Below, piece by piece: positions 2,097 to 63,244 of a stretch of 64,000 bases of DNA (its first letter is position 1; each line of letters begins with the position of its first letter). The notes below the pieces were generated by a model, which made no database searches, was not told where the DNA came from, and worked only from the letters and a program-made list of their open reading frames with translations. Origin of the DNA: an uncultured Gammaproteobacteria bacterium. GTDB taxonomy: Bacteria > Pseudomonadota > Gammaproteobacteria > JBBQDK01. The position numbers were made by a program, and so were the translations under genes. The stretch spans positions 396,358 to 460,357 of the forward strand of contig CAVZVG010000006.1 of NCBI GenBank assembly GCA_963778665.1. Direction: 5' to 3'.

Positions 2097-4160
2097 TCAG
2101 TGCGTGGCGGCCGGCGCCGGGACGGGAGCCGGGGTCTTTCCTGATCCGGTGGCGGGCGTCTTATTATCCGCGGGTGGCTGCATCGCCGTATCCGGCACCT
2201 CGGTCGGGGCGTGCCGGAGCATTTCCTCCAAGGTCGGCAACTCCGGCTGCTTCTCTCCCGGCATCAGCATTACACCTTCGCGTTGGCGTTCCAGCTGCTT
2301 CTCGCGGATGTAGTCGTACTTGCCGTTGGTGTACTCCGCGCTGACCGCATCGTCGCGCAGAATCGTCGGATGAATGAAGACCATCAGGTTGGTCTTGGCC
2401 TTTGAGCTGTTCTTGCTGCGGAACAGCGTGCCCAGCAAGGGCAAGTCACCGAGCAGCGGCACCTTGGACACACTCTCGGTCAACTTATCCTCGATCAAGC
2501 CGCCCAGCACCACCATCTTGCCATCGTCGACCATGACGCTGGTTTTGATCGACCGCTTGTTGGTGACGATATCGCTGGTGCCCTGCACAGGCGGGCTGAT
2601 GCTGGACACTTCCTGCTGGATATCCAGCTTGATGGCATCGCCCTCGTTGATCTGCGGTTTGATCTTGAGCGTCAGGCCGACATCCTGGCGCTGAATGGTC
2701 TGGAATGGATTGCTGACCGTGGTGCCGGTACCGGTCGTGCCGCCGCCGGTACTGGAGAACGAGCCGGTGACGAAAGGCACGTTCTGGCCGATGACGATTT
2801 CGGCTTCTTCGTTATCCAGTGTCAGCAGGTTCGGTGTCGACAGAATATTGGTATCGCCATCGCTGGCGAGCGCCTGCAGCAGCGCGCCGAAATTGAAGTT
2901 CTTGTCGTTGAAGCGGCCGAAGCCGAGCGTGGCGCCCTGCGGTATCGAACTGGCGGCCGTCGCGGCTCCTGCGGAGCCTGCCGAAATAGCGCCGGCCAGA
3001 CCGGCGATGCCCGTGCCGCTGCCGGTGAAATTGATCACGCCTACGGGATTGTTGCTGGGCGAGCCATCGAATATCCACTGCACGCCCAGGTTTTTGGCTT
3101 TGGTCGAGGAAACCTCGGCGACGACGGCCTCCACCAGCACCTGTGCACGGCGGATGTCGAGCTGACGGATGACCTGCTCGAGCGAACGCATGATGTCGGG
3201 CGAAGCCGTGATCACCAACGAATTGGTGGCCTCATCGGCCTGCACATCGAACTGTTGGCCGGCCGCCGCCGCGGCGGCGGCCGGCAGGCCGGGGGTTCCT
3301 TTACTCTGCGAGGTGCCGACACCCTTCAAAACGGCCACCAGATCCTTGGCCTGGGCATAGTGCAGATAGATGACGCGCGTGTTGCCGGTATTCTCCATCG
3401 GCGTGTCCAGGTGGGCGATGATGGCGCGCATCGCCAGTCGCACGGATTTATCACCCGACATGAGGATGCTGTTGGTGCGCTCGTCGGCGATGAAATTCGG
3501 CGCGCCGCCGGCGACGGGGGCTTCGCCGGGCGTGGGCTTGGAGAGCGAGATCAGGATGCGCACGACCTCGGCGGCCGAGGCATGCTGCAAGGGAATGACC
3601 TCGACGTCACTGTCACCGGCCTGGTCGATGCGATGAATGATCTTGACCAGGCGCTCGATGTTGCTGGCATGATCGGAAATGATCAGCACATTGGTGGCCG
3701 GATAGGCCGCGAGGTGGCCCTGCTGCGGGATCAGCGGCCGCAGGATCGGCACCAGTTGCGCGGCGGAAACATTGTGTACCGGTATGATCTGGGTCGCGAT
3801 CATATCGGTGCCTTCGGCGCTTTTGTCCGGCAAGGTCGGGATCGCGGACTGCTTGGCATTGATGTCCGGTTCGATTTTATAAACACTGCCGCTGGGAATC
3901 ACGGCGAAGCCGTGCACATCGAGGATCGACAGGAATACTTTATAGACCTCGTCCTTGTTCATTGGCTTGGACGAGATCACCGTGACCTTGGCCTTGACGC
4001 GCGGGTCGACGATGAAGTTCTTGCCGGTGATCTCGGCCACCGTGCTGATCAGCGCGCCGATGTCCGCGTCTTTGAGATTCAGGGTCACGGTCGATTCCGG
4101 CGCCGCGAAGACGAGCGGCACTGTCATCAGCAGAGCCACCACAACCAAGCCGCGCCCCAT
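2097..4160 (-). CDS. gspD: Type II secretion outer-membrane secretin GspD
   Basis: The ORF is open from 4313. The N0/N1-type region (TLNLKDADIGALISTVAEITGKNFIVDPRVKAKVT) and the C-terminal secretin domain (VPLLGDLPLLGTLFRS) are recognisable. The start is placed at MGRGLVVVALLMTVPLVFA (signal peptide, GGAG just upstream). ATG 4310 and GTG 4313 are alternatives. Confidence 0.9.
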   Translation of the reverse strand: MGRGLVVVALLMTVPLVFAAPESTVTLNLKDADIGALISTVAEITGKNFIVDPRVKAKVTVISSKPMNKDEVYKVFLSILDVHGFAVIPSGSVYKIEPDINAKQSAIPTLPDKSAEGTDMIATQIIPVHNVSAAQLVPILRPLIPQQGHLAAYPATNVLIISDHASNIERLVKIIHRIDQAGDSDVEVIPLQHASAAEVVRILISLSKPTPGEAPVAGGAPNFIADERTNSILMSGDKSVRLAMRAIIAHLDTPMENTGNTRVIYLHYAQAKDLVAVLKGVGTSQSKGTPGLPAAAAAAAGQQFDVQADEATNSLVITASPDIMRSLEQVIRQLDIRRAQVLVEAVVAEVSSTKAKNLGVQWIFDGSPSNNPVGVINFTGSGTGIAGLAGAISAGSAGAATAASSIPQGATLGFGRFNDKNFNFGALLQALASDGDTNILSTPNLLTLDNEEAEIVIGQNVPFVTGSFSSTGGGTTGTGTTVSNPFQTIQRQDVGLTLKIKPQINEGDAIKLDIQQEVSSISPPVQGTSDIVTNKRSIKTSVMVDDGKMVVLGGLIEDKLTESVSKVPLLGDLPLLGTLFRSKNSSKAKTNLMVFIHPTILRDDAVSAEYTNGKYDYIREKQLERQREGVMLMPGEKQPELPTLEEMLRHAPTEVPDTAMQPPADNKTPATGSGKTPAPVPAPAATH

Positions 4161-22663: not shown

Positions 22664-22780
22664 GAGCGCCTCGTGGCGCTCGCCCGCTCTCCCTCCCTGA
22701 GCGGGCATAAAGACCCGGTTTCCCCAAACCGGGTAATGTTGGCCCCGGTTATTTCCCCCTTAACAACCGGGGCTTTTTTT
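22664..22780 (+). ncRNA. Candidate structured small RNA or 3'-UTR element: four consecutive GC-rich hairpins, the last an intrinsic terminator (strand assignment tentative)
   Basis: The four hairpins are gagcgcc-tcgt-ggcgctc (22664-81), gcccgctc-tccctccct-gagcgggc (22682-706), acccggttt-cccc-aaaccgggt (22713-34) and gccccggtt-atttcccccttaac-aaccggggc followed by T7 (22742-80). No plausible + strand CDS lies upstream. The track ORFs here are compositionally implausible. Confidence 0.35.
22742..22780 (+). terminator. Rho-independent terminator (9-bp GC stem followed by TTTTTTT)
   Basis: The sequence is gccccggtt...aaccggggc ttttttt. The T-tract is on the + strand only. The stem abuts the engB stop (22790) on the opposite strand. 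Confidence 0.7.
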
Positions 22781-53256: not shown

Positions 53257-53418
53257 TGTTGTTTTGTGGCGAATACTGACCCAGGTTTTGCATCGAATTT
53301 TGACCCGGTAATAAAGCTTTAAAGATACTGTTTGCCAGGTTTGTTTGTTGATTCACTGGTCCAGTCATTGATGCAAAAAAACTTTCGACATGGCTCATTC
53401 TCAGGCGCAAACCAACAA
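53257..53418 (-). mobile_element. MITE-like repeat, copy R1 (most diverged)
   Basis: 162 bp bounded by tgttgttttgtggc...ggcgcaaaccaacaa. It aligns by hand along its whole length with 54843-55003 and, reverse-complemented, with 62918-63078 and 63085-63244. Confidence 0.75.
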
Positions 53419-54055: not shown

Positions 54056-54472
54056 GTGAAAAATCGCGGCATGCATTTTACTCGTGAAGAATTGGCGGAG
54101 GCCGGGGTATCGGGATTTTTCGCCATCGTAAAGGAATGGGGTCTGAGCCAAGAAGAATCGAGGACGCTACTTGGCAACATTAGTCATGGCCGTTTCGACG
54201 CACTTCAAATGGGTGATCCAACCACCCTGAGCACACTGTCCGATGATGAGCTTGATCGCCTAGCCTATATCACAGGCATCTATGCCGCGCTCAACAGTCT
54301 CTATACGCCTGCGAGCCACTCGGAGTGGTTGCGCAACAAAAGCAGGTTGTCTGCCGAGGCGATGTATCGACCCTGGGGGACTGGATCACCGCTCGATTTT
54401 TTGCTGACCGGCAAGTTCATCGCGTTGGCGGACGTTTACGCGCACTTGAATTCCATCGGGGGTGTGTCATGA
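54056..54472 (+). CDS. Xre-like / DUF2384 (MbcA-ParS type) antitoxin
   Basis: The N-terminal HTH-like segment reads FFAIVKEWGLSQEESRTLLG. The C-terminal segment reads EWLRNKSRLSAEAMYRPWGTGSPLDFLLTGKFIALADVYAHLNSIGG. It matches the W...N..l.g..Pl..l.t..G...V...L pattern of RES-partner antitoxins (from memory). Confidence 0.65.
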   Translation: MKNRGMHFTREELAEAGVSGFFAIVKEWGLSQEESRTLLGNISHGRFDALQMGDPTTLSTLSDDELDRLAYITGIYAALNSLYTPASHSEWLRNKSRLSAEAMYRPWGTGSPLDFLLTGKFIALADVYAHLNSIGGVS

Positions 54473-54842: not shown

Positions 54843-55003
54843 TGTTGTTTTGCAGCGAACACTGACCCAGGATTTGCATGAATTTTGACCGTGACATAAC
54901 GCTTCAAAGTTACTGTTCTCCAGTAATGCATGTTTATGTACTGGTCCAGTCCTCGATGCAAATAAATTATCGAAATGGCTCAATCTCAGGCGCAAAACAA
55001 CAA
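54843..55003 (-). mobile_element. MITE-like repeat, copy R2
   Basis: 161 bp. The left end is tgttgttttgcagc and the reverse complement of the right end is ttgttgttttgcgcc, giving an 11-nt identical terminal inverted repeat TGTTGTTTTGC. Confidence 0.8.
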
Positions 55004-55100: not shown

Positions 55101-55265
55101 CCGAGCCATTCCCGGTGGGTTTCCGGTGCTGAACGGCCTAATCCGACTCTAAGTGGTCAGTCGTGATGGGCGTGATTCGGTCACATTTCAAACCCAACTT
55201 CACCGTCCTAATAAGTTAAGATAGTCTTTGTCTAATAACATTCACTGTTAGGCGTCTCCAATACC

Positions 55266-55892
55266 ATGCGTCGAACCTTCGACTTCTCTCTTCTTCCACC
55301 GATTGATTACCAGGGCATGCTGATTCAACTAGACAAGGAAGTTGAACAGGCATTCCTGGAAATATCCCAACTACAGGAAACCTACGACAGGGCTCGCGCT
55401 GCACTGATGTTCTTTTTCCTAACCAACGACAAAGCTGACAGATGGCGAAACGATGCCTATATACGTGCCGGACTGAACGAACTCTATTCAATGCAAGATT
55501 CAGTGGCGCGCGCTTTCAAATCATCTGGCATGGGAAGGCACTCACCAAAAATATCCGATTCAAGGCACCCGCTGGTGCATATTATGTACATTCTGCGCCA
55601 CATAAACGTGCATACAGTTCCCCTGCCGTCAAAAATTGAGGAAACAACGGTCATATACCGACCTAAAACTGTCGCGGAAGAAATGACTTATGATATTGTT
55701 GTTCTCAGCGATATAACCCTGGAAGACTTATTGAAGAGTAAGGAAGTCAAGGATCACTATAACAGGCCTGATCTCGTGCGAGCCTGCGAATGGTTAATGG
55801 AGAAGCAGCGCGCCTTCGGTATTGCTGAAGTATTTAGCAAGGGAGTTGACGCCTATTGTGCAGAAGTCATATCAACCTATCGAAAGCAGTGA
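55266..55892 (+). CDS. Hypothetical helical protein with an R-x4-H motif (208 aa)
   Basis: The ORF has a clean start, AT-rich codon usage like the rest of the island and predicted long helices. It contains ILRHINVHT, the minimal HEPN-type R-x4-H motif. No other family evidence. Confidence 0.6.
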   Translation: MRRTFDFSLLPPIDYQGMLIQLDKEVEQAFLEISQLQETYDRARAALMFFFLTNDKADRWRNDAYIRAGLNELYSMQDSVARAFKSSGMGRHSPKISDSRHPLVHIMYILRHINVHTVPLPSKIEETTVIYRPKTVAEEMTYDIVVLSDITLEDLLKSKEVKDHYNRPDLVRACEWLMEKQRAFGIAEVFSKGVDAYCAEVISTYRKQ

Positions 55893-55977
55893 CGCCTAAC
55901 CTCGAGTTCGAAGTGACACGCATAAAACTGCGCGCCCTTCAACGCAAACGTTTTTCCTAAGCGAGGATTGGAGAGAT

Positions 55978-56343
55978 ATGGAACTGAGAGATTTTATTAA
56001 GACGAGCCTGGTTGAGATTTGCTTGGCCATTGATGACGCAAACAAAGCACTGGCGGGTAGTGAGGCAATCATTAATCCGGGATGCATTCAGGTCAACTCA
56101 GAAGAATCCCAAGCTTTCGGTCGTCAAAGCAATAAAGCAATACATGAAGAGCGGAAACTTGTACACAAAGTAGATTTCGATGTCGCCGTCTATGCCCAGG
56201 AAGGCGAAAAGGCTGGCGGCGGTGCGAAGATCTCTGTCGCCTCCATCGGGTTTGGTGTAAATGCTGAGACATCTACTACAAACAAGTCAGAAACACGACT
56301 GAAGTTTTCAATTCCCGTAATCTATCCGGAAGGGAAGGCATAA
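55978..56343 (+). CDS. Small protein resembling the trypco2 effector-associated domain (121 aa)
   Basis: GGAGAG serves as RBS. An N-terminal helix (MELRDFIKTSLVEICLAIDDANKAL) is followed by the beta-rich segment VDFDVAVYAQEGEKAGGGAKISVASIGFGVNAETSTTNKSETRLKFSIPV. This matches my recollection of trypco2-family sequences. Confidence 0.6.
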   Translation: MELRDFIKTSLVEICLAIDDANKALAGSEAIINPGCIQVNSEESQAFGRQSNKAIHEERKLVHKVDFDVAVYAQEGEKAGGGAKISVASIGFGVNAETSTTNKSETRLKFSIPVIYPEGKA

Positions 56344-56360
56344 CCATTCGCTGCATGCGA

Positions 56361-56385
56361 CGCCGGGCAACTGCGGCGCTTTTCC
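56361..56385 (+). terminator. Short GC hairpin plus TTTT after the two-gene module
   Basis: The sequence is cgccg-ggcaactg-cggcg followed by cTTTTcc, 18 nt after the stop at 56343. Confidence 0.45.
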
Positions 56386-56417: not shown

Positions 56418-56488
56418 TGTTACGAATGACCAATTACGGGGTGCGAGTGTCCGAACCACTCGTTCGTGACAGTCCTGTTATGGCCGAG
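56418..56488 (+). repeat. S-type imperfect-hairpin repeat, copy S1
   Basis: S1 reads gttacgaatgaccaattacggggtgcgagtgtccgaaccactcgttcgtgacagtcctgttatggccgagg. It aligns with S2 (62803-62874) at most positions. The central stem is tgtccgaac/gttcg-t-gaca. Confidence 0.7.
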
Positions 56489-56646
56489 GCTGTGTCAAAA
56501 CAAAACTTTTAAACACAATCTCGACGAGGCGACCTCACCAGATGCGTTATGAACAACGATCTCGGATGAGGTAATGGTTTTGGGACCCCTGCTTTCGAGC
56601 TGATTTTGAGTTTTTACACGCCCTGGACCATTTCCGGCCGTTCGCA
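56482..56646 (+). repeat. Left arm of a roughly 165-bp inverted repeat bracketing the lipoprotein gene
   Basis: The left arm reads ggccgaggctgtgtcaaaacaaaacttttaaacacaatctcgacgaggcgacctcaccagatgcgttatgaacaacgatctcggatgaggtaatgg...ccggccgttcgca. Its reverse complement aligns by hand with 58077-58240 along the whole length, with scattered mismatches. Confidence 0.8.
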
Positions 56647-56874: not shown

Positions 56875-57870
56875 ATGAATAAGAGGAATATGGATATGAC
56901 TAAAATGTTAGCAATCAGCGTCACTTTGCTCGCATTTTCAGTATTCAGCAGCTCATGTAGCAAAGAACAGCATCCTCAGATGGGGTATTCTATTTTTCAG
57001 AATGCCACCTTGTTTCATGTCGAGTTAATTGATAGCAAAACACTTCTTGTGGATGGGGATTTCATCAATCCTCTTCAAAGACGCGGCACATACAAAGTGC
57101 CACTATCCTCAATTGAAAACCCTGCGACATATACTTTTATCGCGAATATTTATCAGGACCCCGTAGTGGGTAGTTCTGGTCCAACTGAGGTAAAAGGATA
57201 TTACGGAGACGACTATTTACTTCTTAGTGGATACACACCAAGCCAAGGAATGATCCAAGGTAGCGTCGTGGGGCGTTATGATATTAAATCACATAAACTC
57301 ACATTGTTAACGCCGGATAATGACTATTATTTCGAACTGGGATTTACCCGAAACAAAAGCGCAGTATTACTGAGCCACAAGAAACTGATTCGTACTACAC
57401 ACGGATCCTACGTAAGGTCGGATATACCAACATTGATAGAACTAGATTTAGCCTCCGGAGCACAAAAAACAGTATTCGAGTCTCCCGAATTTCACTACAG
57501 CAGAGAAGCTTCAGATCTTATTTGTCCGCCATTTCAGAACGCATCTGGATCATCGAGCGGCAAGTATATAGTCATCTTAGGGAGAAGAAACGGGGGTGGG
57601 TGCGCTCCATATTTAATTACAAATCCACAATCTGTGGATCAGCAAATTGCTCCGATCTTAGTCTTGGATACTGCGGGAACGACCATATGGTATCCGAACG
57701 AACAGAACTTCCTGATGGTGTGCGGTAACTCGATCGGATGTAAATACAACGCACAAGGAAGCCTTGTGAAGATGTACGAATTTCCTTACAAAGGTTTCTA
57801 TTTGGCCGATTATGACCCCAAAACGGATACGGTACTCCTGGTCCACCATCACGGGCGGGCCAATTGTTGA
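56875..57870 (+). CDS. Putative lipoprotein (331 aa), most AT-rich gene in the window
   Basis: Signal peptide with lipobox (MLAISVTLLAFSVFSSSC). The remainder is beta-rich with repeated GxY/D motifs. No family recognised. Start ambiguous (in-frame Met at 56875, 56890, 56896 and 56905). Confidence 0.7.
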   Translation: MNKRNMDMTKMLAISVTLLAFSVFSSSCSKEQHPQMGYSIFQNATLFHVELIDSKTLLVDGDFINPLQRRGTYKVPLSSIENPATYTFIANIYQDPVVGSSGPTEVKGYYGDDYLLLSGYTPSQGMIQGSVVGRYDIKSHKLTLLTPDNDYYFELGFTRNKSAVLLSHKKLIRTTHGSYVRSDIPTLIELDLASGAQKTVFESPEFHYSREASDLICPPFQNASGSSSGKYIVILGRRNGGGCAPYLITNPQSVDQQIAPILVLDTAGTTIWYPNEQNFLMVCGNSIGCKYNAQGSLVKMYEFPYKGFYLADYDPKTDTVLLVHHHGRANC

Positions 57871-58076: not shown

Positions 58077-58240
58077 TGCGAACGGCGTATTTGGATCCAG
58101 GCTGTGTAATAACTCAGAATCATATTGAAAACGGGGGTCGCAAAACGATTACCTCATACGAGATCGTTGCTCATAGCGAATCTGGTGAGGTCACTTCGTC
58201 GAGCGTTTGAAAAAAGTTTTGTTTTTACACAACCTCGGCC
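58077..58240 (-). repeat. Right arm of the roughly 165-bp inverted repeat
   Basis: The right arm reads tgcgaacggcgtatttggatccaggctgtgtaataactcagaatcatattgaaaacgggggtcgcaaaacgattacctcatacgagatcgttgctcatagcgaatctggtgaggtcacttcgtcgagcg...gttttgtttttacacaacctcggcc. It is the reverse complement of the left arm. Confidence 0.8.
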
Positions 58241-58926
58241 GGTAATCGACCATTGTGGCTGGCTCCGCCTAATATGCAGAGTTCGACCCGCTCCCGCCGT
58301 TCGGGCTGGCGTATTAAATCACTGTCAATTTTCCCAACTCGGCCATTCGAGCTGGTACATAAACCTCCATCAAGCGCCCCAGGTTGCATTCTGAACACGC
58401 TCGCAAGAAGCTATGTACACAAAAACCGGCATCGGGAGCCATGGAATGCAACAACAAGCCGACATAATCCTCAAGCAATCATGCTCCATTTGAAAAATGA
58501 TTTGGGCTCGTAGTGGGAACTTATGTTGTTGATTTGACTATCGGCAAAAGTGATAGGGAGCCCAATTACTCCGTTTGCAACGGAGCTTTTCGGCACCCCA
58601 TTAGTAGTTGCGCGCCGATAGGTAACACTTTCTGATAAAGATTATCGACAGGATCCTATGTCCAGGCACGAAAATAAATGTTACGAAGTGAAGGAAAAAC
58701 TGCGATTGAACGGGTTCAAGACGACAGTTTTCCTTTCCACTTCGTGCCATTCAGATTTTCGACCTTCCCATTGGCCCTGCAACAATCGAAAAGTCTGAAG
58801 AGTATCGACGCCCAACTACCGCACGAGTTGACGCGCAAACAACGCACGCAACTCAGCTCCCGTAGGTTAGACCCACTGAGATCTCATTTGCTCGCGCGCG
58901 GCCCCGCATTGTATAGGAAAGGAAGG

Positions 58927-61900
58927 ATGCAATTCGTCACCAACGGCCCCGACATTCCCGATGCGCTGTTGCAGGCGCACGAGGAGGGCCGCGTGGTGTT
59001 TTTCTGCGGCGCGGGCATTTCCTATCCGGCCGGCCTGCCGGGCTTCAAGGGGCTGGTGGAGGAGATCTACCGGCTGAACGGCACGACGCCCTCGGACATT
59101 GAGCGCGAGGCCTTCGACCGTGGGCAGTTCGACGCCACGCTCGATCTGCTGGAGCGACGCCTGCCGGGGCAGCGCCTTGCCGTCCGCCGTGCGCTGGCGC
59201 AGGCGCTGAAACCCAAGTTGCGCCGCAAGGGGGCCACCGATACGCAGGCGGCGCTGTTGCGGCTGGCGCGCAGCCGTGAGGGCGCGCTGCGGCTGGTCAC
59301 CACCAACTTCGACCGCGTGTTCCATACGGCGGCCAAACGCACCGGCCAAGCGTTCCAAGCCTATGCCGCGCCAATGCTGCCGATCCCGAAGAACAGCCGC
59401 TGGAACGGGCTGGTCTACCTGCACGGCCTGCTGCCCGAAAGGCGGACGACACGGCACTGAACCGTCTGGTGGTCACCAGCGGCGATTTCGGCCTGGCCTA
59501 CCTAACCGAACGCTGGGCGGCGCGCTTCGTGAGCGAGCTGTTCCGCAACTACGTGGTTTGCTTCGTTGGTTACAGCATCAACGACCCGGTGCTGCGCTAC
59601 ATGATGGATGCGCTGGCCGCCGACCGGATGCTGGGCGAAGTCACGCCGCAAGCCTGGGCGCTGGGCGACTGCGAGCCGGGGCAGGAGCACCGCAAGACCA
59701 TCGAGTGGGAAGCCAAGGGCGTCACGCCCATCCTCTACGAAGTGCCCGCCGGCAGCCACGACCATTCGGCGCTGCATCAAACCTTGCAAGTCTTGGGCAG
59801 ACACCTACCGCGACGGCGTGCTGGGCAAGGAGCGCATCGTCGTCAGACACGCCCTGGCGCGGCCTCGGCCAGTACGCAGCAAGACGACTTCGTCGGCCGG
59901 ATGCTGTGGGCCTTGTCGGACAAGTCGGGCTTGCCGGCCAAACGTTTCGCCGACTTCAATCCCGTCCCGTCGCTGGACTGGCTGCTGGAGGCCTTCTCGG
60001 ACGAGCGCTTTCGGCACGGCGATCTGGCTCGCTTTGGTGTTCCTCCACGCGACGAGGTGGACGCCAAATTGCGCTTCAGCCTGATTCGCCGGCCAGCGCC
60101 CTATGACCGCGCGCCACCGATGCTGCTGGCCTCCGGCGGCATCACCGGCAGCCAATGGGATGACGTGATGTTCCATCTGGCCCGCTGGCTAGTGCGACAC
60201 CTGGATGACCCAAGGCTGGTCATCTGGATCGCGCAGCGTGGCGGCCAGTTGCATTACCGCTGGCCGTGGCTGATCGAAGACAGAGCTGGATCGACTTTGC
60301 CTCATTGGAGCGCGATGGCAAGACCGCCGAACTGGACGAAATCCGTTTACAGGCGCCAAAGGCCATTCCCGGCCCCTTGATGCGCACGCTGTGGCGTCTG
60401 CTGCTCAGCGGCCGGGTGAAAACACCGTGGCAGCGATCCCGATCTCTATCGCTGGAAAGAGTCGGCTGAAGCGGGAGGGACTGACCACCACGCTACGCTT
60501 GGAGTTGCGCGATCTACTCGCCCCCCAGGTGGCCTTGAAGAAGCCGTTTCGCGCGAGCGAGGAGGCAGAGAGCACAGACGAGCCCACGCACTTGCGGCAA
60601 TTGGTGAACTGGGAGCTGGTGCTGGCCGCCGATCACGTGCATTCGGACCTGCGCGACCTTGCCGACGAGTACTGGACGTCTGCATTGCCGGCAGTTGCTG
60701 GAGGATCTTCAGCAACTTCTGCGTGATGCTCTGGATTTGTTGCGCGAGCTGGGTGCAGCCGACGACCGCATTGACCGATCGCACTGGGACCTGCCGTCGA
60801 TTACTCCGCACTGGCAGAACCGAGGTTTCCGCGACTGGGTAACCTTGATCGAATTGCTGCGTGATGCATGGCTGGCGGTTCGCAGCAATGACAGTGCTCG
60901 TGCGATGCGGATTGCCCAGGCCTGGTTCGAGTTGCCGTATCCCACCTTCAAACGACTAGCTCTGTTTGCCGCCAGCCGGGAGGCTGCATCGCACCCGAGC
61001 AATGGGTGGATTGGCTGTTGGTCGATGGCAGCTGGTGGCTGTGGTCCACGGATACGGGGCGTGAGGTGTTCAGACTATTGGTTCTGCAGGGGCACCAATT
61101 GGCAGGGGCTACTCAGGCAACGTCTGGAGGTCGCCATCTTGGCCGGCCCGCCGCGCGAGATGTACAGGGATGATCTGGAACCAGAACGGTGGCAAGACTT
61201 GGTGGCTCGTTCAGTCTGGCTGCATCTGGCCAAATTGAAGACCTCGGGCCTCGCACTGGGCGCTACCGCCCAGGCACGCTCGGAAGAGCTGTCCAATGCA
61301 TACCCGCAATGGCAGTTGGCGGCCAACGAGCGTGACGAGTTCTCCCACTGGATGAGTGGCACAGGCGATCCGGACTATGAAGACAGCCGGGATGTCGATA
61401 TCGCGCCTCGAAAACGACGCGAACTCGTTCAATGGCTCACAAAGCCACAACCCGAACGGCGACCCTTCTACGAGAACACGTGGCGCGACGTTTGCCGCAC
61501 CCGCTTCTTTCACAGCCTGTACGCGCTATGCGATCTGGCGCGGAATGGCGTATGGCCATCCGACCGATGGCGGGAGGCACTGCAGGCCTGGAGCGAAGAA
61601 GGAGTGGTGTTGCGGTCCTGGCAATACGCTGCACCACTGGTGCAGACCATGCCAGACACCGTTATCCAGGAAATTACCCCCGGTGTGACGTGGTGGATCG
61701 ACACTGTTTCGAAGTCGATTAATCAGCACGAGGAAATTCTACTGAACCTGTGCCGCCGCGTGTTGGCTCTGCCACTCGAAGCAGGAACCGGAAAGACTCG
61801 CAATGGTGAACCGATTGACCAACCTGTTACCGAGGCCATCAATCATCCGGTCGGGCATATCACGCAGGCGCTGATAAATCTTTGGTTCAAACGCAATCCG

Positions 61901-62755
61901 AACGACGACGATCTGATTCCCGCCGACATCAAGCCCTTCTTCACGGAAATCTGCAACGTGCAGGTGGACCGATTTCGTCACGGCCGGGTGCTACTTGGTT
62001 CGCAATTGATCGCACTCTTCCGCGTGGATCGAGCTTGGACCGAGCGATACCTGTTGCCCCTGTTCAGTTGGGACAATCGGGGCGAAGCGAAAGCTGTGTG
62101 GGAAGGTTTCCTGTGGTCGCCCCGCTTCTACCAGCCCTTGTTGGTTGCGTTCAAACCGCAGTTTCTGGAAAGCGCAAACCACTACGCCGACTTAGGTGAA
62201 CACCGCCAGCAGTTTGCAGCCTTCCTGACATACGTGGCGTTGGGGCCGATCGAGGGCTACACCGTGGATGAGTTCCGAGCCGCAATTGGAGCGCTGCCTC
62301 ATGAAGGGTTGGAGGAATCCGCTCAGGCGCTCTCTCAGGCCCTTGAAGGAGCAGCAGATCAGCGAGAGGACTATTGGAAGAACCGTGTCCAGCCGTTCTG
62401 GCAAGACGTTTGGCCAAAGTCCCGCGACCTCGCAACGCCGCGAATCGCCGAGTCATTGACCCGGCTGATCATTGCTGCCCGAGCTGAATTTCCCGCTGCG
62501 TTGAATGCAGTACAAGACTGGCTGCAACCCATTGAACATCCATATTACATCGTACATCTACTGCACGAATCAGGTTTGTGCGCACGATTTCCGGAGGATG
62601 CTCTGCGTCTGCTAAATGCTGTGATTACCGACCAACAGTGGGCACCCCGGGAGTTGGGGCAATGTTTGGACGAGATCGTGCAAGCCGCGCCACGGCTTGC
62701 ACAAGCTACCCGCCTCCTGCGGCTCCGAGAATATTCCCGTAGGCGCGGGATGTGA
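58927..62755 (+). pseudogene. SIR2-domain giant protein (DSR1-like defence-associated sirtuin, about 1275 codons) interrupted by about ten +/-1 frameshifts between 59439 and 61118
   Basis: AGGAAAGGAAGG RBS plus ATG 58927. The N-terminus is MQFVTNGPDIPDALLQAHEEGRVVFFCGAGISYPAGLPGFKGLV...TNFD...LHGLL...VVTSGDFG...FVGYSINDP, a SIR2_2-type NAD-binding domain. The track ORFs 58678-59460, 59469-60380, 59608-60084, 60266-60469, 60391-60726 and 60659-62755 join into one continuous protein-like sequence when shifted by one base at each junction. Confidence 0.8.
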
Positions 62756-62917: not shown

Positions 62918-63078
62918 TGTTGTTTTGTGCCTGAGATTGAGCCATTTCGATAATTTATTTGCATCGAGGATTGGACCAGTACATAAACAAGCAATACTGG
63001 AAAACAGTAACTTTGAAGCGTTATGTCAGGGTTAAAATTCGATGCAAATCCTGGGTCAGTATTAGCTGCAAAACAACA
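62918..63078 (+). mobile_element. MITE-like repeat, copy F1
   Basis: 161 bp, tgttgttttgtgcctgagattgagccatttcg...gggtcagtattagctgcaaaacaaca. It is in tandem with F2, 6 nt apart. Confidence 0.8.
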
Positions 63079-63084
63079 GATACA

Positions 63085-63244
63085 TGTTGTTTTGCGCCTG
63101 AGATGAGCCATTTCGATTATTTATTTGCATCGAGGACTGGACCAGTACATATACAAGCAATACCGGAAAACAGTAACTTTGAAGCGTTATGTCAGGGTCA
63201 AAATTCATGCAAATCCTGGGTCAGTGTTTGCCGCAAATCAACAA
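63085..63244 (+). mobile_element. MITE-like repeat, copy F2
   Basis: 160 bp, tgttgttttgcgcctgagatgagccatttcg...gggtcagtgtttgccgcaaatcaacaa. It is nearly identical to F1. Confidence 0.8.

Follow-up and report, generated by a model that had tools for sequence, protein, structure and literature searches.

The present work deals with two adjacent genes in a 64,000-nucleotide stretch of DNA from an uncultured Gammaproteobacteria bacterium (GTDB lineage Bacteria; Pseudomonadota; Gammaproteobacteria; JBBQDK01), which corresponds to positions 396,358 to 460,357 of the forward strand of contig CAVZVG010000006.1 (GenBank assembly GCA_963778665.1) and is called here the window. Both genes are on the + strand and start with ATG. 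The first open reading frame (ORF; 55266-55892) codes for a protein of 208 amino acids (aa) and the second (55978-56343) for one of 121 aa, and a spacer of 85 nt (55893-55977) lies between them. These genes are probably separate, self-contained mobile units that lie next to each other in a horizontally acquired island, now decayed and full of repeats. The simplest reading is that of two adjacent cassettes, or of independently inserted units, which were later invaded by repeats resembling miniature inverted-repeat transposable elements (MITEs). A first-pass annotation, made from the sequence alone, had proposed instead an orphan two-gene conflict module formed by a possibly HEPN-like effector and a trypco2-like adaptor. 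The names Trypco1 and Trypco2 were given to small proteins co-occurring with trypsin-like peptidases in NTPase conflict systems (eLife 2020, PMC7159879), for which a 2025 preprint uses the name "Pepco" (bioRxiv 10.1101/2025.11.14.688446). The co-orientation, the spacing and the motifs quoted in the first-pass annotation were all found in place, including the segment VDFDVAVYAQEGEKAGGGAKISV...RLKFSIPV in the ORF of the 121-aa protein. The term orphan had to be abandoned, since both proteins have sizeable families outside this genome: 265 representative clusters for the 208-aa protein (profile search, E <= 0.001; almost all of them stand-alone proteins of 200-220 aa) and at least 400 for the 121-aa protein (broader profile including phage homologues).

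The association of the two genes was examined by running hidden Markov models (HMMs) of both families over all 58 fetched loci. Besides the window, the 208-aa family was present in 21 loci, about 15 of them distinct and 11 with enough downstream DNA to hold a partner, and the 121-aa family in 33 loci, about 17 of them distinct and 15 with enough upstream DNA. Co-occurrence outside the window was nil for both families (0/21 and 0/33), and with it the proposed pairing fell. An all-versus-all BLAST of the flanking ORFs did not reveal a conserved partner for either family and linked only near-identical contigs. The closest relatives have other neighbours as well: downstream of the 87%-identical homologue of the 208-aa protein (P0002) there are a convergent AAA ATPase and an Endonuclease_NS gene, and after the 83%-identical homologue of the 121-aa protein come a 242-aa ORF, which is unrelated, and a transposase. 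It is thus highly probable that the two genes do not form a conserved module. Two candidate partners were considered and discarded. A 208-aa ORF that follows the Pseudomonas Trypco2-like gene at locus L041 codes for a membrane protein of coincidental length, with no match to the family HMM even at E <= 10. As for a conserved partner of about 200 aa upstream of the 208-aa family, neighbour BLAST linked only near-identical contigs and Pfam showed DUF6998, DUF2971, NarE-like and other unrelated proteins.

The boundaries of DNA homology also part the two genes. When the window was compared by blastn with the four loci closest to the 208-aa gene (L027-L030), the similarity (86%) covered only positions 55247-55901, leaving out the 121-aa gene, and its ends coincided exactly with two heptamers of the + strand. 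The left one, GTTAGGC (55247-55253), is similar to an integron core site (GTTRRRY) and is located 13 nt before the ATG; the right one, GCCTAAC (55894-55900), is similar to an inverse core site (RYYYAAC) and is located 2 nt after the stop codon. The similarity of the 121-aa gene to its own closest relatives begins at its ATG (55977/55978). In these relatives of the 208-aa gene, an 87-nt hairpin (GCCTAAC...GTTAGGC) with the architecture of an attC site has the left GTTAGGC as its R' end (z score -2.7 to -3.2 at L027 and L028). Hairpins of the attC type also abut genes of the 208-aa family at L012 (62 nt, z -4.7) and L016 (63 nt, z -6.6), a further one was found at L018, and all three lie within arrays of small co-oriented ORFs. 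The coincidence of the homology ends with the heptamers, together with the attC-like hairpins of the relatives, suggests that the 208-aa gene is an integron-type cassette with a single gene. In the case of the 121-aa family, an Alteromonas array of small co-oriented ORFs (L037, L038 and L040) carries a 108-nt attC-like hairpin (z -3.4 to -4.2) after its Trypco2-like gene, and the Alteromonas locus L039 has a divergent tyrosine recombinase; this array looks like an integron. Taking into account that relatives of both genes adjoin attC hairpins, both appear to travel as integron cassettes. The array at L016 also contains, at 3006-3590, an overlapping pair of small genes resembling a toxin-antitoxin system and followed by a 70-nt attC-like hairpin, which is typical integron cassette content.

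By comparison with integron cassettes and with attC clusters lacking an integrase, the locus has in common the delimitation of the 208-aa unit by GTTAGGC and GCCTAAC and, in relatives of both genes, the flanking hairpins within arrays of small co-oriented ORFs. It differs in that the window has neither a foldable attC nor an integrase and in that MITE-like repeats interrupt the island. The spacer has a length compatible with attC, but it offers no R' partner and no attC candidate, and its folding was not significant for either strand (z = +0.19 for the + strand, -1.34 for the - strand), which gives it the look of a decayed cassette junction. The 208-aa gene would then be a fossil cassette, which kept its boundary heptamers and whose downstream attC decayed. 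GTTAGGC is not enriched over the window as a whole (6 matches vs 3.5 expected). An active integron in the island was also considered and was rejected, since the spacer folds, the motif scans and the integrase search were all negative and only the boundary heptamers of the 208-aa unit survive.

Some observations count against independent units. Scans for RYYYAAC and GTTRRRY, both strict and relaxed, and tblastn with three tyrosine recombinases gave no intact attC site or integrase in the window; a terminator scan and the folding of the spacer gave no convincing terminator between the two genes; and the adjacency, the co-orientation and the identical GC content of both (46.4%) fit co-transcription too. 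On these grounds a functional pair could have formed locally in this genome. It would be a genuine, recently assembled, lineage-specific conflict module, co-transcribed over the 85-nt spacer, in which one product gates, neutralises or complements the other, either as dual effectors (a HEPN-like RNase and a Pepco-like pore) or as a toxin/immunity pair. Pepco-like genes are indeed located elsewhere near HEPN or Abi-type genes (Ymh at L008 and L009, AbiTii at L005-L007, AbiGi at L041), but such neighbours are expected in any defence island. Considering moreover that the families share no other locus, that their closest relatives have other neighbours, that the homology ends between the two genes and that both families occur as single-gene cassettes, we regard this module as most unlikely. 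The side-by-side location of separate mobile units is the reading followed below.

The resemblance of the 121-aa protein to trypco2, which the first-pass annotation had pointed out, turned out to be real. The Pfam model Trypco2 (PF19631) matched it with 20.3 bits (E = 6.8e-4) and also matched 25 of its 28 close homologues (28 clusters), all of them below threshold. The matching stretch, residues 57-105 (56146-56292, + strand), corresponds to profile positions 24-73 of 78 and includes the strand VDFDVAV and the Gly-rich segment GGGAKISVASIGFG. Among the homologues, P0210 (51% identity over 118 aa, E = 1e-42) has a precomputed PF19631 domain, P0292 also carries this domain, and P0212 of Alteromonas (46% identical) bears the UniRef name "trypco2 family protein". 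A point against this assignment is that the protein itself falls under the gathering score of PF19631 (20.3 vs 24.2 bits). The family-wide matches and the PF19631-positive homologues nevertheless support it well, and the 121-aa protein very likely belongs to the Trypco2/Pepco superfamily. Searches of PDB sequences were made with four profiles in all and gave only spurious matches to zinc fingers and clamps.

The mechanism described for this superfamily changes the role that should be expected of the protein. SsPepco, a Streptomyces protein of 117 aa, is reported to be a pre-assembled 9-10-mer, a detergent-resistant beta-barrel. It becomes a toxin that permeabilises membranes when the adjacent Avs4 protease (SsAvs4) cleaves behind a conserved Ile and so removes a charged, Pro-rich tail of ~2 kDa, and the amphipathic N-terminal helix is needed for this action (bioRxiv 10.1101/2025.11.14.688446). 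In view of this reported pore activity of the cleaved protein, Trypco2 is to be regarded as an effector and not as the adaptor that the first-pass annotation had assumed. The 121-aa protein resembles SsPepco in size (121 vs 117 aa) and in having an N-terminal helix followed by beta-strands, which were placed by AlphaFold2 (AF2) at residues 3-24 (helix), 63-72 and 105-114 (strands). Both proteins also share strands in which charged and hydrophobic residues alternate: K64/D66/D68 with V65/F67/V69/V71 in the first strand of the 121-aa protein, and E105/R107/K109/S111 with L108/F110/I112 in the second. Its C-terminal stretch F110-SIPVIYPEGKA121 (56305-56340, + strand) holds the final amphipathic strand and the conserved Ile115, and after them a short tail that is charged and contains Pro. 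Ile115 is kept in 26/28 homologues and is Val in distant ones, and the tails that follow it across the family have 5-25 aa, with 29-33% charged residues and 12-13% Pro. A conserved Ile/Val with a charged tail after it that varies and contains Pro would be a further likeness to SsPepco, the correspondence of I115 with I97 of SsPepco being only putative; the family tails are, in contrast, much shorter (mostly 5-13 aa).

Several points speak against a pore. The mechanism comes from one preprint and one Streptomyces protein, which is a Trypco1 or a Trypco2. The tail of the 121-aa protein has only 6 aa vs ~20 aa in SsPepco. The hydrophobic moments were not significant, neither for the helix (0.42, with 0.52 as the 95th percentile of shuffles) nor for the strands (0.74-0.85, with 0.87). 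The AF2 monomer model was poor (predicted local distance difference test, pLDDT, of 63), so that its structure search was uninterpretable; such a model might be expected if the fold exists in the oligomer only. Weighing these points and the likenesses, we give an even chance to the 121-aa protein being a pore-forming effector.

A key aspect of the 121-aa family is the absence of the usual partner. No trypsin-like protease or STAND/NTPase partner is present in the island of the window, in agreement with the first-pass annotation, and at the approximately 17 distinct loci no trypsin- or caspase-type protease, STAND NTPase or vWA-MoxR gene was found beside any member. Nearby peptidases were limited to two phage lineages, with an S24 repressor and an M78 ImmA-like gene. 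With respect to the Pepco proteins described so far, this branch therefore differs in lacking, at the examined loci, an adjoining protease of the serine or cysteine type and any STAND NTPase or vWA-MoxR partner, in belonging to Proteobacteria, Bacteroidota and their temperate phages and not to Actinobacteria or cyanobacteria, and in being carried in prophage immunity regions, accessory slots of Mu-like prophages and integron cassettes.

Searches of phage, plasmid and IMG/VR collections found the family in phages and prophages, and temperate phages carry full-length homologues that are distant from the 121-aa protein (~30%). The Trypco2-like gene of Bacteroides phage BS-TP2 and of many gut prophages starts 2-6 nt after a Cro/cI-type helix-turn-helix (HTH_3) gene. 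In the transposable Porphyromonas phage phage006a_EM3 (L035 3179-4405) it is 6 nt downstream of a Peptidase_S24 (LexA/cI-type) repressor, and in Riemerella phages it is located in the lysogeny module, by the integrase. The HTH/Trypco2-like pair is kept in the Bacteroidales branch while the genes downstream change between HicAB and HTH-Peptidase_M78, so the conserved partner there is a regulator and not a protease. The M78 peptidase was itself considered as the Pepco partner in Bacteroides prophages and was set aside, given that it is not conserved and that related prophages have HicAB instead. The HTH_3/Trypco2-like pair (L044-L048, L051-L053 and L034) is very common in gut metagenomes, with one cluster appearing in 241 index blocks, and at L052 an insertion sequence lies between the two genes. 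In Mu-like prophages of Shewanella and Sedimenticola the family occupies accessory slots beside AbiTii or an Mrr-like nuclease, AbiTii being the neighbour at L005-L007. In a Pseudomonas island (L041) it is accompanied by AbiGi, a resolvase and an integrase. The 79%-identical homologue of L008 and L009 lies in a chromosomal island and is followed by DUF5343, Ymh (HEPN) and Fic. This last string (L008 8441-10271 and L009) is conserved and may constitute a defence or toxin system of its own.

The phage-borne homologues can be compared with the exclusion genes of prophage immunity regions, of which lambda rexAB is the type. As in that case, they lie directly downstream of a repressor or HTH gene, a position that points to their expression in the lysogen, and it is plausible that their product permeabilises membranes. 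They have, in contrast, no sequence relationship with rexAB, and the copy of the window is outside a prophage and has no adjacent repressor. Considering these locations, it is conceivable that the 121-aa protein does not need proteolysis at all, being a constitutive or repressor-co-expressed membrane protein, or the toxin of an HTH-toxin pair, with a role such as superinfection exclusion or lysis timing and with a pore controlled by expression or by the state of the membrane. The lack of an adjoining protease at the distinct loci, the HTH gene conserved immediately upstream in Bacteroidales and the tail of only 6 aa favour such a protein. On the other hand, as in the protease-gated Pepco, the family conserves an Ile/Val ahead of a tail that is variable, charged and contains Pro, and peptidase domains do occur nearby in the two phage lineages with the S24 repressor and the M78 peptidase. 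We consider this alternative somewhat unlikely.

Close relatives of the 208-aa protein form 22 clusters, with identities of 40-87%. No match to Pfam, NCBIfam or PADLOC was found for it or for any of the 98 scanned relatives, a search of PHROGs gave a single weak match to a family without known function, and the phage, plasmid and IMG/VR collections contained no member of the family. The AF2 model was confident (pLDDT 89.8, predicted template modelling score 0.88) and is helical with one beta-hairpin: helices 24-32, 34-51, 59-86 and 102-116, the hairpin at 122-147, and further helices to residue 206. The motif R111-H-I-N-V-H116 (55596-55613, + strand), of the form R-phi-x3-H and a candidate catalytic site, is located at the C-terminal end of helix 102-116. 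It belongs to the best-conserved block of the close family, HPLVHxMYxLRHINVH, in which R111, N114, V115 and H116 are invariant. A second motif of the form E-x3-R, E38-T-Y-D-R42 (55377-55391, + strand), is located in helix 34-51, and its E38 and R42 are invariant in the close-family alignment. In an alignment of 77 sequences that descends to about 20% identity, the consensus of the block becomes NPLLHxxxxLRNxxxHL; the residues conserved in at least 90% of the sequences are R42, R67, L70, E72, P102, R111, H116, W176, Q181 and G185, with W176 and G185 invariant.

The hallmark of HEPN domains is Rx4-6H with a polar residue (N/D/H) right after the R, at helix-3's end and entering the loop towards helix-4, and many HEPN families carry a second acidic residue, as E-x3-[KR], in the N-terminal helix (Anantharaman et al. 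2013, PMC3710099). The 208-aa family has both signatures, the first as RHINVH (LRNxxxH in the family) and the second as E38/R42. The motif helix is followed by a loop and a beta-hairpin and not by helix-4. By comparison with the HEPN solo RNases (AbiD/F, AbiU2, AbiV, Ymh PF09509 and integron-associated HEPN), the likenesses are the R-phi-x3-H at a helix end with H as phi (N in the consensus), the upstream E-x3-R, an all-helical core, and the existence as stand-alone proteins of about 200 aa in variable islands and integron cassettes. The differences are the lack of a profile or structural match and the beta-hairpin and extra helices after the motif helix. The RHINVH of the first-pass annotation is therefore not a chance occurrence, being in the invariant core of the family, at a helix end and with an E-x3-R upstream, but the HEPN fold or profile that it had suggested was not found.

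The results of the fold and profile searches are contrary to a HEPN assignment. Foldseek with the model against PDB gave a best E of 0.07 and TM <= 0.31, with no HEPN protein in the top 50, and against BFVD it gave no match. None of the 98 scanned members (21 + 77) matched a HEPN-clan Pfam model, so the assignment is based on motifs. Sequence-profile searches of PDB gave only spurious zinc-finger matches to LRHxxxH, and hhalign against Ymh (PF09509) gave a probability of 0.04 with a reference alignment of only three sequences. Foldseek is weak on small helical bundles with inserts. Taking all this into account, the 208-aa protein has slightly less than an even chance of being a HEPN-like RNase, judging from its motifs.

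It could also be that the 208-aa protein is not a nuclease. Its helical fold would then be new, the motifs would belong to a site with a binding or structural role, and the protein could be, for example, a regulator or act in anti-defence or immunity. The missing HEPN similarity despite a confident model and the non-canonical hairpin after the motif helix are in favour of this alternative, and so is the consideration that a stand-alone RNase toxin without a neutraliser needs some other control. Against it, R111 and H116 are among the approximately 10 positions that survive down to about 20% identity, with N or H after the R, and the motif at the helix end with its upstream E-x3-R fits the published HEPN definition; moreover, sequence comparison links HEPN families only with difficulty, and there are known HEPN cassettes associated with integrons (PMC3710099). 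We therefore regard a non-nuclease function as rather doubtful and retain the HEPN-like RNase as the working assignment. A distant member of the family, P0131 (L032 6001-6879), has in frame and upstream a C-terminal remnant of Trypsin_2 (GFSGGPV), with a match of 24.3 bits vs a cut-off of 27.6 and with the His/Asp half missing. The remnant is intriguing given that Trypco2 was named for its association with trypsin. A trypsin link for the family was nevertheless rejected, since this decayed case is the only one and the upstream ORF codes for a membrane protein; the remnant counts as no more than a lead.

Both genes lie in a low-GC stretch of about 7 kb (44-53% vs a background of about 61%), and their GC content at third codon positions is 0.45-0.49, vs 0.75 in a nearby housekeeping-type gene. 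The first-pass annotation had given each gene its own ribosome binding site (RBS), which is true for the 121-aa gene (GGAG/GAGGA 4-12 nt upstream) but not for the 208-aa gene, before which there is no Shine-Dalgarno-like motif. It had also closed the module with a hairpin plus TTTT. This element is present (56361-56383, + strand; a 5-bp stem at 56361-56378 with an 8-nt loop, and UUUU at 56380-56383), but it is weak, folding no better than shuffled sequences (z = +0.59) and not being called by the terminator scan.

The repeats that had been said to bound both sides were found. The upstream one (54843-55002) is a MITE-like element of about 160 nt with terminal inverted repeats of about 27 bp, TGTTGTTTTG...CAAAACAACA. 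Other copies of it are located at 53257-53417, 62918-63078 and 63104-63243, and the four copies are 78-95% alike, are present in both orientations and are scattered in the low-GC island. The downstream repeat (56482-56627, about 130-145 nt) has an inverted copy at 58096-58240 that is 79-93% complementary, and the two bracket a low-GC ORF (56875-57870), with which they look like a composite mobile unit. The product of this ORF (331 aa) has a lipoprotein-like signal (...SSSC) and no Pfam match. Further downstream, two ORFs (58678-59460 and 59469-60380) represent a split SIR2_2 (SIR2-like) gene, probably a disrupted SIR2-type defence gene. They are followed by a 698-aa ORF (60659-62755) with no Pfam match, and in the region 58678-62755 the GC content reaches 67%. 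On the upstream side, a 138-aa ORF (54056-54472) gave a sub-threshold match to the Xre-like antitoxin HTH (PF20432; 20.6 vs 25.8 bits); it has no toxin gene beside it, and the MITE-like repeat lies between it and the 208-aa gene. Elsewhere in the window, at 22680-22780, Rfam detected the anti-hemB small RNA (Burkholderia RNA 7) with 52.5 bits vs a gathering score of 49.5, a hint of a Burkholderia-type host.

Such surroundings raise the question of whether both genes are inert leftovers of a degenerating island, with no current function in the host. The MITE-like repeats, the split SIR2_2 gene, the partnerless Xre-like antitoxin, the decayed attC and the 208-aa gene without an obvious RBS are what would be seen in that case. 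However, both ORFs are of full length with all the family-invariant residues intact, and the relative at L027 has the same RBS-less leader. Inert genes are thus quite improbable, and we continue with two units that may still be functional.

Taking these results together, a mode of action can be outlined for each unit. The product of the 208-aa gene would be a HEPN-like, metal-independent RNase, a solo protein of the "Abi type", with R111/H116 and E38/R42 forming the active site, and it would be latent until a trigger arrives, presumably phage infection. The 121-aa protein, as inferred from the one characterised Pepco, would assemble an oligomeric beta-barrel with the N-terminal helix at its base, and the inner membrane would be permeabilised once the tail after Ile115 is removed or displaced. 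Considering that no cognate protease is found beside any member, the licensing factor of this family would act in trans. The usual homes of the family, beside prophage repressors, in Mu-like slots and in integron arrays, suggest a role in superinfection exclusion or abortive infection.

Two wider proposals can be made here, to which we give a rather low probability. One is that the Pepco branch without a dedicated protease, undescribed so far and widespread with at least 400 clusters, consists of stand-alone effectors, common in gut prophages of Bacteroidales, in Mu-like prophages and in marine integrons. Their expression, driven by cassette promoters or from within prophage immunity regions, would serve exclusion or abortive infection, and they would be licensed in trans, for example by the maturation protease of an invading phage or by a repressor-linked peptidase (S24/M78). 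The other is that the proteins of the 208-aa family are HEPN-like RNases of a new structural class, which spreads on integron cassettes.

The failure of the proposed minimal defence module is a useful result in itself, as cassette shuffling can set two conflict genes side by side and so mimic an operon. The 208-aa family, with about 265 clusters, combines a confident predicted fold that has no match in the structure libraries searched with a catalytic signature of HEPN, and it is a candidate for a new class of RNase toxins missed by Pfam, NCBIfam and PADLOC. As for Pepco/Trypco2, which has been defined and mechanistically explained through its partner protease, the existence of a large partnerless branch beside prophage repressors raises the question of what opens the pore. 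If the licensing in trans proposed above were true, an activity essential to the phage would become the trigger of the pore.

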